Positions 1-51,510 of a stretch of 51,510 bases of DNA are shown here, piece after piece. Where the stretch lies: the sequence record PP925845.1, one strand, 5' to 3'. The notes under the pieces were generated by a model, which was not told where the DNA came from, made no database searches, and saw nothing but the letters and a program-made list of their open reading frames with translations. Source of the stretch: Escherichia phage BananaBelafonte. Position 1 is the stretch's first letter. Each line of letters starts with the position of its first letter. The translations under genes were made by a program, and so were the position numbers.

Positions 1-171
1 ATGTGTATGTGTGAGTGTGTAAGTATATGGATGTATATATACAGGGGCGCGGTTTCCGGCGCAGATTCGTACAACGCCACCCAAAACACTGATTTCATTC
101 ACTTTGAACATCAAAATGCGTTGTCGATTTTCAAACATTACAATTTAGACGTGCGGAAACGAAAAAAACTA

Positions 172-200
172 TTGACTCAACCAGGGCAGTGTTGCACAAT
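172..200 (+). promoter_or_regulatory. candidate sigma70-like promoter for leftmost early genes
   Basis: TTGACT (172-177), 17-bp spacer, CACAAT (195-200); about 30 bp upstream of first gene; -10 is weak. Confidence 0.35.
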
Positions 201-232
201 GCAGCCACTGAAACCAATCAGGAGAAAACACG

Positions 233-700
233 ATGGAAAATCAGACTTTTAACGACAAATTGCGTTTAGCCGCTCGCGCCCTGGCAGTTGGCGAAATTCC
301 CGAATTAGTGATCCCTTACAACGCAATAGCTATGGCATTGCAGGGCAAGAAATCAGCCGAAGCGCCAGCAAGTTATATCCGTACAACCATGAATCGGGTC
401 GCAGAGGTGCGCGAGGCCGGAAGCGTCAAAGTGAGAAAGGGTGAGTGTCAAAACCCTGAAAGCGACTATTTCGGCATGGATGTATTCACGATCACGATTT
501 GCACCAGTGACCGCAAAACGATTTACGACAAGAAAGACGTTGAGCGCATCAAAAAGGCGACGGCTCGCAAGGTGGCGGAAAAGATTCTAACACTATCGCC
601 AAACCTGGCAAACTACACGCCGGAGGAATACGCAACGCTCGCAAAGGCCGTTGCAGAATTTCACGAACTGGTTAAATCACACTTTATCACTGAGGAGTAA
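233..700 (+). CDS. hypothetical early protein (155 aa)
   Basis: ORF with AGGAG-like RBS upstream of ATG; first gene after left-end control region; no recognisable motif. Confidence 0.5.
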   Translation: MENQTFNDKLRLAARALAVGEIPELVIPYNAIAMALQGKKSAEAPASYIRTTMNRVAEVREAGSVKVRKGECQNPESDYFGMDVFTITICTSDRKTIYDKKDVERIKKATARKVAEKILTLSPNLANYTPEEYATLAKAVAEFHELVKSHFITEE

Positions 701-705
701 GAAAG

Positions 706-951
706 ATGGAAAAATTCACTATTGATTCAATGATGGCGGCAATCGACAAGGCCGGAGAAAACACCCTGGTAATGGTCAACATCAACGCACTTGAGATAAG
801 CGTCGGGGAGTTCCTGAGCATCGCGCACGATTGCAACGATGTTTACAAGTCGGAGAAAGGCGAGGAGGCCAGAATCAAGATCGTAAGCGTTGGTGATGGT
901 TCGTTTTACATCACGCTGGTGAACGAAAACACAATGGCGGTGGCTGTATGA
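706..951 (+). CDS. hypothetical early protein (81 aa)
   Basis: ORF with GAGGAG RBS; tightly packed after previous gene. Confidence 0.45.
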   Translation: MEKFTIDSMMAAIDKAGENTLVMVNINALEISVGEFLSIAHDCNDVYKSEKGEEARIKIVSVGDGSFYITLVNENTMAVAV

Positions 952-1223
952 ACAAGTTAAAAGTAGCCCTGGGCGCAATCCTGGTTGTTGCTGGTGTGGT
1001 CATGTTGACCGGATGCGAGAAAGCAGCGGAGGCGGAAGTGATCGCAGGTGCGGAGAATGATTTCCGTGTCTCTCGCCTGTTTACGGTTGACGGTTGCACG
1101 GCTTACCGATTCTATGACAATGGGCGTGCGATCTATTATACCGATTGCAAAGGCTCCAGCGCCTGGAAAGTGCAAAACGGCAAAGTGACGACTCACCACC
1201 AGGTGCAGACTTCCAGCGAATAG
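948..1223 (+). CDS. putative lipoprotein (signal peptide plus lipobox LTGC), possible superinfection-exclusion type
   Basis: N-terminus MNKLKVALGAILVVAGVVMLTGC has hydrophobic core and lipobox Cys; mature part has additional Cys; function inferred only by analogy to phage Cor/Llp-type lipoproteins. Confidence 0.5.
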   Translation: MNKLKVALGAILVVAGVVMLTGCEKAAEAEVIAGAENDFRVSRLFTVDGCTAYRFYDNGRAIYYTDCKGSSAWKVQNGKVTTHHQVQTSSE

Positions 1224-1269
1224 CACGAATTGCTAAAACTCAAATCGTGGGGCTTGATACTATAGCCCC
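1221..1269 (+). promoter_or_regulatory. conserved intergenic module: 20-bp element (TAGCACGAATTGCTAAAA) plus GC hairpin containing TATAG
   Basis: Element at 1221-1238 includes the TAG stop of the upstream gene; hairpin GGGGCT..AGCCCC at 1249-1269; leader CATCGAAACGAATTGAGGAAAA precedes the next ATG. Confidence 0.6.
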
Positions 1270-1294
1270 ATCGAAACGAATTGAGGAAAACGAA

Positions 1295-1540
1295 ATGCAC
1301 CACTTAAACAGAATCACAAAAGCTGAATTTATCGAGGGTGTTACAGCAGATTTTAGCGCTGAACTGGCTGAATCAGTCAACGCACGCTGTGAGGCTTTTG
1401 TTGATGCAGATGCGGCTCGCGGTCTTGCGATGTACGCTTTCGACGATTACGGCTGTGATAACGAGCTTGAAATGGCGCGAAACGCTATGCACTCAGTGCT
1501 TGACGTGGCGACCGAGGCTTTCGGTCTTGAGCTTAAATAG
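1295..1540 (+). CDS. hypothetical early protein (81 aa)
   Basis: ATG at 1295 preceded by GAGGAAAA RBS; the ORF-track start at 1145 overlaps the upstream gene and the intergenic module, so the internal start was chosen. Confidence 0.45.
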   Translation: MHHLNRITKAEFIEGVTADFSAELAESVNARCEAFVDADAARGLAMYAFDDYGCDNELEMARNAMHSVLDVATEAFGLELK

Positions 1541-1584
1541 CACGAATTGCTAAAAGGGAATCGCCTCTGACTGGTATGATTCCC
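1538..1584 (+). promoter_or_regulatory. conserved intergenic module copy
   Basis: TAGCACGAATTGCTAAAA at 1538-1555 with embedded stop codon, followed by hairpin GGGAATC..GATTCCC. Confidence 0.55.
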
Positions 1585-1610
1585 ACATCAACAAACGAGA
1601 GGGAAACTAA

Positions 1611-49776: not shown

Positions 49777-49803
49777 TGATTTTTTCCTCTCGTTTGTTGG
49801 TGT

Positions 49804-49854
49804 GGGGCTATCATATCGAATCGCCCCGAATCAGTTTTAACAAAAAGTGCTATT
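49804..49854 (-). promoter_or_regulatory. conserved intergenic module copy (minus strand)
   Basis: Minus strand: AATAGCACTTTTTGTTAAAA then hairpin GGGGCGATTCGATATGATAGCCCC, then GAGAGGAAAA leader. Confidence 0.5.
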
Positions 49855-50266
49855 TAATCCACACGCCGCTAACGATGAATCCGGTGAAGTGCGCCTGATC
49901 CACAATCGAATCGCTCGTCAGGTGTTGCGGGAAAGCGGCCTTGTATTCTGCTTTGCGGTCGGCAATCCACGCCAGGAATTCATGCTTGCGCTCAATCACA
50001 TTTCCGATCCATGCCTCGCGCCCTTTGTGAACCACGAACGCCAGAAAACGGATGTTATAGCCAGGATTCGCGATCTTCTCCAGGTGTACCAGCGTTTCGA
50101 AATTGTCCTCATTAACTTCCATCGGCACGAGCACACCGTCAGCAATTGCAGAGTTGAAGCCGTCAATGTCAAAGTTTGATTTGTGCTCACACTCGCCATT
50201 GCTCACCATAACAGCGCCGTCTTTCATGTAGTAGTAGTGACCGTTGAAAGTGTTCAGGTAACGCAT
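49850..50266 (-). CDS. hypothetical protein (138 aa)
   Basis: ATG (rc) at 50266 after GAGGATT; ORF-track start 50332 overlaps the upstream conserved module. Confidence 0.4.
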   Translation of the reverse strand: MRYLNTFNGHYYYMKDGAVMVSNGECEHKSNFDIDGFNSAIADGVLVPMEVNEDNFETLVHLEKIANPGYNIRFLAFVVHKGREAWIGNVIERKHEFLAWIADRKAEYKAAFPQHLTSDSIVDQAHFTGFIVSGVWIK

Positions 50267-50323
50267 TTTGTAATCCTCAATGTTGTTTCGATGAAAGAAT
50301 AGTACCGCATCGGCGCTGATTGG

Positions 50324-50343
50324 TTTTAACAAAAAGTGCTATT
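50324..50343 (-). promoter_or_regulatory. conserved element copy (minus strand)
   Basis: Minus strand reads AATAGCACTTTTTGTTAAAA; includes the TAG stop of gene 50339-50575. Confidence 0.5.
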
Positions 50344-50575
50344 TCGGCAATCGGATCTCGTTGTACTCGCAGAACTCGATCACGTATGCACATTCGTTGG
50401 GGCGCTCCTGGCCTTTCATCACCTCGCATCCTTGGTTAAACAGGTTGCAGTGCTGACACAACCATCCGCCGCAATGCTCCTCAACAATGCTTGAGCCGTC
50501 ACACCTCCCGCCGCCGAATCTATGCGGGAAGTCATACGCACGGCAATTGCAAGTCACCTGGTAACGCCTGGCCAT
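50339..50575 (-). CDS. Cys-rich small protein (78 aa), possible zinc-binding
   Basis: Nine Cys including CNC, CGGWLCQHC; stop TAG embedded in conserved module. Confidence 0.4.
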   Translation of the reverse strand: MARRYQVTCNCRAYDFPHRFGGGRCDGSSIVEEHCGGWLCQHCNLFNQGCEVMKGQERPNECAYVIEFCEYNEIRLPK

Positions 50576-50769
50576 TATTCCGACTCCAGCACGATCACAG
50601 GCTCCAGGCGCTCTAACACAACTTTGAAGTCTGCAAAGAACGTTGGGCGCTTTTCGGTCAAGTCAACGAAAGTATCGGTCGCCAGGCTTGCGCGATCACC
50701 TTCATAGCACACAACACGCTTTCCGGTTGCGCGGCTGATAGCCACCACGCGATAAGTGTTTTTGCTCAT
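50575..50769 (-). CDS. hypothetical protein (64 aa)
   Basis: ORF coupled to neighbours. Confidence 0.4.
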   Translation of the reverse strand: MSKNTYRVVAISRATGKRVVCYEGDRASLATDTFVDLTEKRPTFFADFKVVLERLEPVIVLESE

Positions 50770-50772
50770 ATT

Positions 50773-51051
50773 TTATTCTTCCTCTTTCAGTGCAGCGGCC
50801 AGGAACTCAATCACCAGGCGCAGATGCTTTTCGTTTTTGATAGTGGCTGGCAATTCTTCCTTAACTTCTTGTGACAGGTACACGTTGCCATTCCAGGTAA
50901 GGGAGCCGTCAGAGTTGACCAGGTAAGAGCAGCACCATTCGCACGCGTCAACTTCGGAAATCAGCAGCAGATCACGATCTTCATCATTCCAGATTTCCAG
51001 GTCAAAGCCGCGTTTCTGTGCAAAGTTGATAGTGGTCTTAGTCAGTTTCAT
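50773..51051 (-). CDS. hypothetical acidic protein (92 aa), first gene of right-end leftward operon
   Basis: ORF with GGAG RBS downstream of conserved module; net acidic with C-terminal EEE. Confidence 0.4.
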   Translation of the reverse strand: MKLTKTTINFAQKRGFDLEIWNDEDRDLLLISEVDACEWCCSYLVNSDGSLTWNGNVYLSQEVKEELPATIKNEKHLRLVIEFLAAALKEEE

Positions 51052-51061
51052 TTGGTCAATC

Positions 51062-51139
51062 TCCGTGATTGGTTCGTTTCGTTTCGATGGGATAACTATA
51101 CCCGATCCGATCCGGTCTGTTTTAGCAAAAAGTGCTATT
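51062..51139 (-). promoter_or_regulatory. conserved module upstream of first right-end minus-strand gene
   Basis: Minus strand: AATAGCACTTTTTGCTAAAA, 22 bp, TATAGT, leader CATCGAAACGAAACGAA..GGAG, ATG at 51051; no upstream gene, so the element is not merely a gene end. Confidence 0.55.
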
Positions 51140-51510
51140 CATGCATTGAGCACAAAATAACCGCTTCGCATATACAATAGTGAATCACTGAATGTCAACC
51201 CTCAACCGTGAAAATGTTATCGGATAGCGATTGTTTCAGTTTGAGCAACAATTCGAGGTGATTGTTATCGTTTGTGGGGGCAATGGTGAAAAGTGGTCTG
51301 CTTGTGTCAACTTTCGCGCTCTCGTCACGTCGCTATGTTCAATTTGTTCCACTTGTCTAAAATGGAATCCTCCGCAAAATACGACAACAAAAAACAACAA
51401 GTAATTCATCTATAATACATTGAAAATAAAGGATAATTTTATTTATATATATCTAATTGTTGTCATTTGTATAGCGTGTTCTATGGGTATATAGTCACCA
51501 TTTCTTATTT

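Follow-up and report, generated by a model that had tools for sequence, protein, structure and literature searches.

Genome of Escherichia phage BananaBelafonte, a T1-like Drexlerviridae siphophage related to Klebsiella phage KLB26, and its intergenic repeat cassettes

Among the T1-like phages, T1 and TLS package their DNA by the pac-headful route and share a lysis trio with a signal-arrest-release (SAR) endolysin and a unimolecular spanin (u-spanin), as set out in the re-annotation of TLS (PMC11447400). The same work reported a 21-nt repeat, aaATAGCACnnnTTGnTAAAA, in TLS, T1, Rtp and Rogue1, which is intergenic, follows the direction of transcription, lies ~76 nt before start codons and occurs in ~18–21 copies per genome; its function was an open question for the authors, who suggested stoperators, enhancers or UP elements. 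Klebsiella phage vB_KM5a1-KLB26 (PP556865, Drexlerviridae, hereafter KLB26) is, according to its authors, the representative of a novel genus of this family (PMC11845039). In T4-type phages, experiments have established that promoter early stem-loop cassettes (PeSLs) act as promoters, attenuators and recombination sites (PMC2839356, PMC4122927). Here we analysed the sequence of Escherichia phage BananaBelafonte (PP925845.1) over its whole length of 51,510 nt, referred to as the window. We assign a probability of about 96% to the reading of the window as a complete genome without redundancy, belonging to a strictly lytic Drexlerviridae (T1-like) siphophage and representing a new species in the unnamed KLB26 genus, with Changchunvirus (Tempevirinae) as nearest neighbour. 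The genome itself is routine, and its only unusual feature is the set of family-wide repeat cassettes, to which the 21-nt repeat belongs.

Relatedness, ends and lifestyle

Upon megablast of both window halves against 50,697 phage records, only T1-like phages were matched by either half, and the 390–462 Drexlerviridae records matching the window make a chance match impossible. The best match was KLB26 at 93–95% identity, followed by Salmonella phage PMBT35 and then by the Changchunvirus phages PHB17 (72% coverage at 81–82% identity), W011D and PaulSarasin. With its 51,510 bp, ~85 genes, early arms at both ends and shared module order, the window fits the T1-type map (~45–53 kb); coding density is 91%, GC content is 49.4% and the genes fall into six strand blocks. 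T1 homologues could be assigned to 53 of the 85 predicted proteins of at least 40 aa, all of them collinear and with a mean identity of 56.5%; no tRNA and no Rfam family was detected anywhere in the window. A preliminary description of this DNA had read it as a near-complete virulent T1-like siphophage genome, and the data agree as far as relatedness is concerned, since the best matches all lie inside Drexlerviridae, none of them in an unrelated family, and gene order is collinear with T1.

The two ends of the window carry the following non-coding features:

1-232, no strand: left terminal non-coding region with a TG-rich low-complexity tract (1-45), a G/C run and a sigma70-like promoter (sequence)
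172-200, plus strand: promoter-like site TTGACT-17-CACAAT of the rightward early operon (promoter scan)
51052-51510, no strand: right terminal non-coding region with a leftward repeat cassette and an AT-rich tract at ~51390-51510 (sequence)

Joined, the ends form a region of 691 bp with 39% GC (12–34% in stretches at the junction, against 49.4% in the genome), flanked by divergent genes at 50773-51051 (minus strand) and 233-700 (plus strand); the T1 equivalent measures 700 bp. This corresponds to the second divergent control region that the preliminary description had expected from the AT-rich or low-complexity ends if joined, and it is contiguous in relatives: in KLB26 the two window ends fall into a single intergenic gap (392 bp, compared with 370 bp in the window), and in other T1-like genomes the 51510/1 junction is spanned by one alignment of 1,828 nt. 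A scan of the right end for a canonical sigma70 site serving the leftward operon returned none, and the repeat cassette there, with its repeat at 51123-51138 and the -10-like TATAGT at 51095-51100 on the minus strand, is the only candidate. In the T1 record, base 1 lies in the same intergenic region, at a TG-rich tract with a G-run behind it, and the annotated terminal repeat covers 1-2800. Contiguity in the relatives, together with this shared start landmark, argues for a complete unit genome oriented like T1; of the earlier wording "near-complete", the genome thus stands, and the qualifier gives way to unit length, or to within ~20 bp of it. We infer packaging mode and physical termini of BananaBelafonte from its relatives and its small terminase, which is of the P22 gp3 type and consistent with pac-headful packaging.

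A TG-rich tract with a G-run is found at the same place in three genomes (window 1-52, T1 1-70, KLB26 ~1590-1700), in sequences that are not alignable, and this landmark may be related to pac or packaging initiation. Alignments across the window junction were also obtained with about 20 GenBank records (MG0656xx) of typical T1-like genomes of ~50 kb that are entered as phages of Campylobacter jejuni; this host label looks doubtful for Drexlerviridae of enterobacterial type.

An assembly that broke in AT/TG-rich DNA, leaving sequence and possibly a gene missing between 51510 and 1, would be in line with the lack of a terminal overlap, with low-complexity DNA at both ends, a common site of assembly breaks, and with a joined gap 22 bp shorter than its KLB26 equivalent, in which a 35-codon open reading frame (ORF) is annotated. 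We consider such an incomplete genome improbable, as the flanking genes are the same neighbours in KLB26, T1, PaulSarasin and others, the joined intergenic region matches that of T1 in length (691 and 700 bp), a single high-scoring segment pair spans the junction in other T1-like genomes, and the first base lies at the T1 record-start landmark, suggesting deliberate orientation over a random break.

In a full BLAST comparison, KLB26 and the window showed 92.4% coverage and 92.8% identity, corresponding to an intergenomic similarity of ~85.8%, calculated as coverage times identity, a BLAST-based approximation. The similarities to PaulSarasin (50,000 of its 51,285 bp used) and to T1 were ~62% and ~30%. 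Taking the cut-offs of the International Committee on Taxonomy of Viruses into account, 70% for a genus and 95% for a species as quoted in PMC11845039, the value for KLB26 places the window in the same genus and in a different species, and those for PaulSarasin and T1 place it outside Changchunvirus and Tunavirus. By this sequence measure, the BananaBelafonte window is the second member of the KLB26 genus, and the label "T1-like" is valid at family level only. If the window were merely a strain of an already named species, be it KLB26, T1 or a Changchunvirus, nothing about it would be taxonomically new; the structural proteins, 97–100% identical to those of KLB26, would fit this view. It is nevertheless very improbable, given the values below the species line for KLB26 and below the genus line for PaulSarasin and T1, the ~4 kb for which KLB26 has no counterpart, among them the first 1.2 kb and the distal lateral fibre, and the absence of a 40-mer from the window fibre in an exact-match search of IMG/VR.

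Regarding lifestyle, no integrase, recombinase, excisionase, partition gene or lysogeny module was found among proteins of at least 150 aa with Pfam, PHROGs and NCBIfam. The terL-portal DNA had no match in 5,426 complete genomes of E. coli, the only species covered, and TerL had no close relative in 185,579 species-representative genomes, in a search that detects close TerL only. One regulator was identified:

38003-38446, minus strand: Cro/YdaS-like helix-turn-helix (HTH) regulator, 147 aa (sub-threshold HTH)

Its matches among PDB sequences are marginal (Cro/XPH1, E = 0.3–0.65), and NCBIfam gave nothing decisive; the protein is a homologue of T1 gp23 with 58% identity. As the orthologue of gp23 from virulent T1, it is read as a virulent-phage regulator and not as a lysogeny repressor. 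The preliminary statement that neither integrase nor repressor is present thus stands for the integrase and has to be amended by this Cro-like protein. Integrase and att sites, named there as signs of a prophage, were both absent, and with neither lysogeny genes nor bacterial-chromosome relatives found in these searches, the proposed virulent lifestyle stands. A temperate phage or excised prophage with lysogeny genes hidden among small ORFans, for which the ~45 small genes without assigned function and the one HTH protein might be invoked, has a negligible probability in view of the missing integrase, recombinase, excisionase and partition genes among proteins of at least 150 aa, the orthology of the HTH protein to gp23, the searches of 5,426 E. 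coli genomes and 185,579 representatives, and the lack of flanking bacterial DNA, tRNA or an att-like terminal repeat.

Some points weigh against a complete, strictly lytic genome with a Klebsiella-type relationship. No exact terminal overlap of at least 9 bp was found, so that circular closure is drawn from the relatives and not from the window sequence, and a few bases may have been lost at the junction, which is too divergent from KLB26 for base-by-base alignment. The chromosome searches are limited, one to E. coli and the other to close TerL relatives. The host is not fixed by sequence, the distal lateral fibre differing from that of KLB26 and having relatives only 42–58% identical. Finally, SSB and holin have no significant family-model match and are assigned from T1 homology and sequence features.

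Gene modules and their predicted roles

Between them, Pfam, PHROGs and NCBIfam provided assignments in every module. The module calls of the preliminary description could be reproduced: the terminase-portal-head-tail module with M/L/K/I/J by Pfam and T1 collinearity, the lambda-like G/GT at sequence level, the RecE-like/Erf/SSB cassette, primase, DExH helicase and Dam by Pfam, motifs and T1 homologues, and holin, SAR-type endolysin and u-spanin at the expected places, the SAR nature by sequence features only. It had missed the DUF3987 helicase, the VRR-NUC nuclease, the SbcD-like exonuclease, the second methyltransferase, the lateral fibre and the repeat cassettes. The life-cycle steps given below are drawn by homology to T1 and TLS. 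Head, tail and fibre genes are arranged as follows:

8224-8745, plus strand: small terminase, P22 gp3 type (Pfam GP3_package)
8748-10322, plus strand: large terminase terL (Pfam Terminase_6C)
10394-16280, plus strand: head module, including a small protein at its end (Pfam, T1 homology)
10394-11668, plus strand: portal (Pfam Phage_portal_3)
11668-12417, plus strand: MuF-like protein (Pfam)
12429-13541, plus strand: DUF2213 protease/scaffold (Pfam)
13554-14902, plus strand: two cement/decoration proteins, one with a Big_2 domain (Pfam)
14984-15946, plus strand: major capsid protein (Pfam)
16329-18587, plus strand: head-tail connectors (DUF4054 adaptor and two others), tail terminator and tail tube (Pfam)
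17524-17925, plus strand: tail terminator (Pfam)
17928-18587, plus strand: tail tube (Pfam)
18688-19316, plus strand: tail assembly chaperones G and GT (Phage_TAC_4, T1 gp40/gp39 homologues)
18688-19005, plus strand: chaperone G (Phage_TAC_4)
19361-22042, plus strand: tape measure (Pfam)
22045-22398, plus strand: M (Pfam)
22468-23223, plus strand: L (Pfam)
23220-23954, plus strand: K, JAB and NlpC/P60 (Pfam)
23932-24531, plus strand: I (Pfam)
24609-28181, plus strand: J (Pfam)
28213-29527, minus strand: three genes 3' of J, one with a cleavable signal peptide (phrog_25729, 4524, 7961)
32341-34204, minus strand: four conserved genes 3' of the lateral fibre gene (present in KLB26 and PaulSarasin, absent from T1)
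34361-36910, minus strand: lateral tail fibre with a C-terminal intramolecular chaperone domain (Pfam)

The terminase subunits show 60–64% amino acid identity to T1 gp54/gp53, and the P22-type small terminase would start headful (pac) packaging into a capsid with cement/decoration proteins. Tail tube, tape measure, lambda-type tip and the lack of a sheath gene predict siphovirus morphology, with a lambda-like tail that would be built from G/GT, tape measure, the M/L/K/I/J tip and the lateral fibre. For the chaperones, a -1 frame is open at 18930-19316 and overlaps G, the slippery heptamer A AAA AAC lies in the G frame at 18996-19002, directly 5' of the G stop, the ORF downstream of G is a homologue of T1 gp39, and the whole is located between tail tube and tape measure. 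Slippage to the -1 frame at the heptamer would join the G and T frames into the GT chaperone. With this standard lambda-type signal at the G stop, the published "intron" annotation of the G/GT region of KLB26 (10478-11106 in the stretch compared) is probably wrong, a frameshift offering the better explanation.

The tape measure comprises 893 aa compared with 934 aa in KLB26 and is 71% identical to it, the difference concerning especially 20120-20316, in a setting of flanking tail genes that are 97–100% identical. The contrast points to a local replacement or to indels, with a slightly shorter tail as the implied consequence. The three minus-strand genes after J lie in a low-GC stretch (43%), show 100% protein identity to KLB26 and stand in place of T1 gp32/gp31/cor, T1 and PaulSarasin having two plus-strand genes and cor at this position; they may constitute a receptor-binding or superinfection-exclusion module.

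J and the three genes following it are 99.5–100% identical to KLB26, which renders a Klebsiella-like host plausible, and from the sequence, Klebsiella or a close enterobacterial relative is the probable host. At DNA level, the distal, receptor-binding half of the lateral fibre (34372-35903, minus strand) shows no similarity to KLB26, and its closest relatives in the phage collection reach only 42–58% identity over the C-terminal part, where the fibre still carries a Peptidase_S74 chaperone domain. Judged from these similarities, the distal replacement likely represents a swap of the host-range determinant. The proximal fibre gene contains a 63-bp tandem repeat at 36216-36485 (4.3 copies, 84% matches), which encodes 21-aa Ala/Ser/Thr-rich repeats (AAKTSETNSAANKDAAAASAA). 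Beside the fibre gene, 33500-34204 (minus strand) encodes a protein of 234 aa without a Pfam match that has a Gly-rich N-terminus, contains a CCCE motif and ends in a C-terminal PTPPTPPTGCCG tail; it is kept beside the fibre gene in KLB26 and PaulSarasin, where it is labelled "putative sugar-binding protein", and is absent from T1.

The remaining modules comprise recombination, replication, methylation, lysis and the early regions:

233-8147, plus strand: rightward early region, ~27 small genes, mostly ORFans, parted by repeat cassettes (Pfam, PHROGs)
233-700, plus strand: DUF7174 protein (Pfam)
948-1223, plus strand: 91-aa lipoprotein, lipobox LTGC (absent from KLB26 and T1)
1895-2437, plus strand: PNK-type phosphatase (family models)
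3223-3834, plus strand: deoxynucleoside monophosphate (dNMP) kinase (family models)
29528-30032, no strand: first divergent control region, 505 bp, 35% GC (sequence)
30033-32310, plus strand: recombination cassette (Pfam, T1 homology)
30033-31091, plus strand: RecE-like PDDEXK exonuclease (Pfam)
31170-31826, plus strand: Erf annealase (ERF; Pfam)
31867-32310, plus strand: SSB (weak full-length TIGR00621, C-terminal DDDIPF, T1 gp27 homologue)
36998-37957, minus strand: DNA primase, Zn ribbon (Pfam)
38536-44324, plus strand: helicase/nuclease/Dam/exonuclease block with small genes (Pfam, PHROGs)
38536-40539, plus strand: superfamily 2 DExH helicase, DECH at residue 149 (Pfam, motif)
40539-40952, plus strand: VRR-NUC nuclease (Pfam)
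41353-42099, plus strand: Dam methylase (PF05869, E=1e-61)
43036-44157, plus strand: SbcD-like exonuclease (phrog_704, T1 gp16 homologue)
44455-45556, plus strand: lysis cassette (Pfam, T1 homology, sequence features)
44455-44670, plus strand: holin, 71 aa (T1 homology, sequence features)
44673-45167, plus strand: lysozyme, SAR-type (Pfam Phage_lysozyme)
45164-45556, plus strand: u-spanin, 130 aa (LSGC lipobox, C-terminal transmembrane segment)
45690-51051, minus strand: leftward early region, ~9 small genes parted by repeat cassettes (T1 homology, Pfam, PHROGs)
46087-47667, minus strand: second helicase, DUF3987 (Pfam)
48452-49147, minus strand: second DNA methyltransferase, Dcm-like (phrog_757; PHROGs)

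The first divergent control region holds a leftward repeat cassette (29584-29599, minus strand) and a rightward TTGACT-16-TAGAAT promoter (29975-30002). A Pfam search with SSB returned no match. Primase, the two helicases, SSB and RecE/Erf would replicate the DNA into concatemers using the host polymerase, and Dam together with the second methyltransferase would modify it; GATC and CCWGG sites, counted in the window, show no depletion. The exonuclease at 43036-44157 carries an N-terminal HTH scoring as sigma-70 region 4 (26.1 bits against the Pfam cut-off of 25.7), an odd fusion in which it is possibly a DNA-targeting or regulatory domain. The lipoprotein at 948-1223 is a candidate superinfection-exclusion protein.

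In the lysis cassette, the N-terminal segment of the lysozyme is rich in Ala and Gly and precedes an E-x8-D-x5-T motif; the protein is 64% identical to T1 gp12, itself SAR by prediction only. The u-spanin, encoded last, is 50% identical to the characterised T1 u-spanin gp11. A pinholin-type holin, the SAR lysozyme and the u-spanin would act together to lyse the cell.

The intergenic repeat cassettes

The 16-nt core ATAGCACnnnnTGYTA, which is part of the 21-nt repeat of the T1 family, occurs in 20 copies in the window, 0.5 being expected:

Starts 1220, 1537, 2640, 3181, 4827, 6145, 10319, 38460, 40949, 41278, 42433 and 42761, plus strand: repeat copies (core scan)
5' ends 14939, 18673, 29599, 47740, 48455, 49853, 50342 and 51138, minus strand: repeat copies (core scan)
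1220-1295, plus strand: example cassette, consisting of ATAGCACnnnnTGYTA (A)AAA, a 22-nt spacer, TGnTAnnnT, a hairpin, a Shine-Dalgarno sequence (SD) and ATG

Counted strictly, the window holds 18 copies, KLB26 and PaulSarasin 17 each and T1 16, and multi-copy sets in IMG/VR stand on contigs of 46–53 kb. Exactly 22 nt 3' of the repeat, the sigma70 extended -10 signature TGnTAnnnT is found in both the window and T1, with TAnnnT at this position in 14 of the 20 copies in the window and in 14 of 21 in T1, and with the -14 G conserved to at least 90% across 43 distinct copies. With this spacing, the dyad TAGCA-N5-TGCTA comes to lie near -42, and a canonical -35 is lacking. TTGCTA within the repeat was rejected as a normal -35, its spacing being 22 nt and the hexamer at 17 nt lacking the essential second-position A.

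Hairpins with non-conserved stems either enclose the -10 or sit directly 5' of it and have a GAAA loop. In the window, the longest stem averages 5.05 against 3.73 ± 0.19 in shuffled sequences (maximum 4.45 in 500), and 5.90 against 3.86 in T1. For the dominant hairpin register in an ungapped alignment, 62.1% of cells are paired compared with 50.8 ± 1.9, and the covariation score amounts to 0.376 compared with 0.220, values reached by 0 of 500 shuffles in either case; this register beats all slid registers, with pairing and covariation counts that are inflated by orthologous copies from four genomes.

The cassettes are also tied to the reading frames around them. In 13 of 20 copies the TAG of the repeat is the stop codon of the upstream gene, accounting for 13 of the 16 TAG stops of the genome; the next ATG follows 73–77 nt downstream in 14 of 20 copies, behind a conserved leader with SD, and repeat orientation matches the gene strand in 18 of 20. 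Homology breakpoints fall within cassettes, which make up 3.7% of the genome, in 7 of 26 cases against KLB26 (p = 3.5e-5) and in 5 of 26 against PaulSarasin. As the cassettes constitute ~30% of the intergenic DNA, this enrichment is partly just one of intergenic location.

Canonical sigma70 matches over the whole genome numbered 41, with ~52 expected by chance and hence no enrichment over shuffles, so that scans of this kind are unable to define a transcription map; TLS authors likewise found only three canonical promoters (PMC11447400). No phage RNA polymerase or sigma factor was found among the encoded proteins, and no transcription-start data for Drexlerviridae were found in the literature. 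We did not find in PMC11447400 the 22-nt link to an extended -10, the variable hairpins, the embedded stops, the breakpoints or the canonical-promoter counts.

We propose a model in which the two divergent AT-rich control regions and ~18 promoter-like cassettes would drive the early genes from host RNA polymerase. The dyad near -42 might serve an extended -10 promoter without a -35 box, as a contact site for an activator or the alpha subunit in a class-II geometry as at galP1, and the variable-stem hairpin might attenuate read-through; in addition, the cassette would supply the upstream gene with its stop codon and the downstream gene with its leader. Candidate binders of the dyad are a conserved host protein, the Cro-like HTH protein (38003-38446) or the sigma-region-4-like N-terminus of 43036-44157. 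Host Lrp was rejected as binder, copies matching its SELEX consensus YAGHAWATTWTDCTR at 11–13 of 15 positions: the consensus is degenerate and shuffled genomes contain ~65 sites at 12 of 15 or better, which makes the resemblance too weak to count, and Lrp is kept only as a lead.

Two copies lie antisense within the plus-strand late operon, at 14924-14939 between the decoration and capsid genes and at 18658-18673 between the tail tube and chaperone genes, both on the minus strand. Both are conserved in T1 (15086-, 18850-), the second also in PaulSarasin. The copy at 18673 possesses a good -10, TGgTAGAGT, and faces a bidirectional terminator after the tail tube gene. These copies could be sources of antisense RNA or protein-binding sites.

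Comparison with known systems

KLB26, whose host is Klebsiella sp. M5a1, shares with the window an identical gene order and the same lysis cassette, and its head, tail and J proteins as well as the three genes after J are 97–100% identical. It differs in the early genes of the first 1.2 kb, which are unrelated or replaced in the window, in a tape measure longer by 41 aa, and in several early ORFans that are swapped, with breakpoints at repeat cassettes. The comparison thereby locates variation in early ORFans, tape measure and distal lateral fibre, and a second genome adds comparative power to the KLB26-like genus of capsule-independent Klebsiella/enterobacterial phages.

T1 (NC_005833; Tunavirus, Tunavirinae) shares the collinear map, the divergent terminal control region, the 21-nt repeat and the kinds of gene found here: terminase, G/GT, M-L-K-I-J, RecE/Erf/SSB, primase, helicases, Dam and holin/SAR endolysin/u-spanin. 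The window lacks the three HNH endonucleases of T1 and its gp32/gp31/cor module; conversely, the four genes beside the fibre gene and the second methyltransferase are absent from T1. The nearest classified relatives are the Changchunvirus phages PHB17, W011D and PaulSarasin (Bas09), which have a similar genome size and share the four genes 3' of the lateral fibre and the Dcm-like methyltransferase, with the difference that PaulSarasin has kept the T1-type module 3' of J on the plus strand.

The wider value of the genome is confined to the analysis of the repeat cassettes, T1-like phages being nearly without canonical promoters, and this analysis turns the published open question on the 21-nt repeat into a concrete testable hypothesis. 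The closest parallel in layout is provided by the PeSLs of T4-type phages. Like the cassettes, these occupy ~75–100 bp of intergenic DNA, start at the upstream stop codon, contain promoter elements with a variable stem-loop between or over the promoter boxes, end with SD and ATG, occur in ORFan-rich regions and coincide with indel or replacement breakpoints. PeSLs, however, carry a consensus -35 at normal spacing, whereas the cassettes lack a sigma70 -35/-10 pair at 16–18 nt and have an upstream dyad box 22 nt from an extended -10 instead; the two show no sequence similarity and belong to different phage families. From this PeSL-like layout, the cassettes would most likely be composite early promoters/attenuators and at the same time module-shuffling sites, with an activator- or UP-type box in place of the -35. 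We put forward more tentatively, as a possibility somewhat short of even odds, that the repeats, with the roles outlined above for dyad and hairpin, form the upstream half of PeSL-like mobile cassettes, which would be the main early promoters of T1-like genomes and the recombination sites by which ORFans are shuffled between them.

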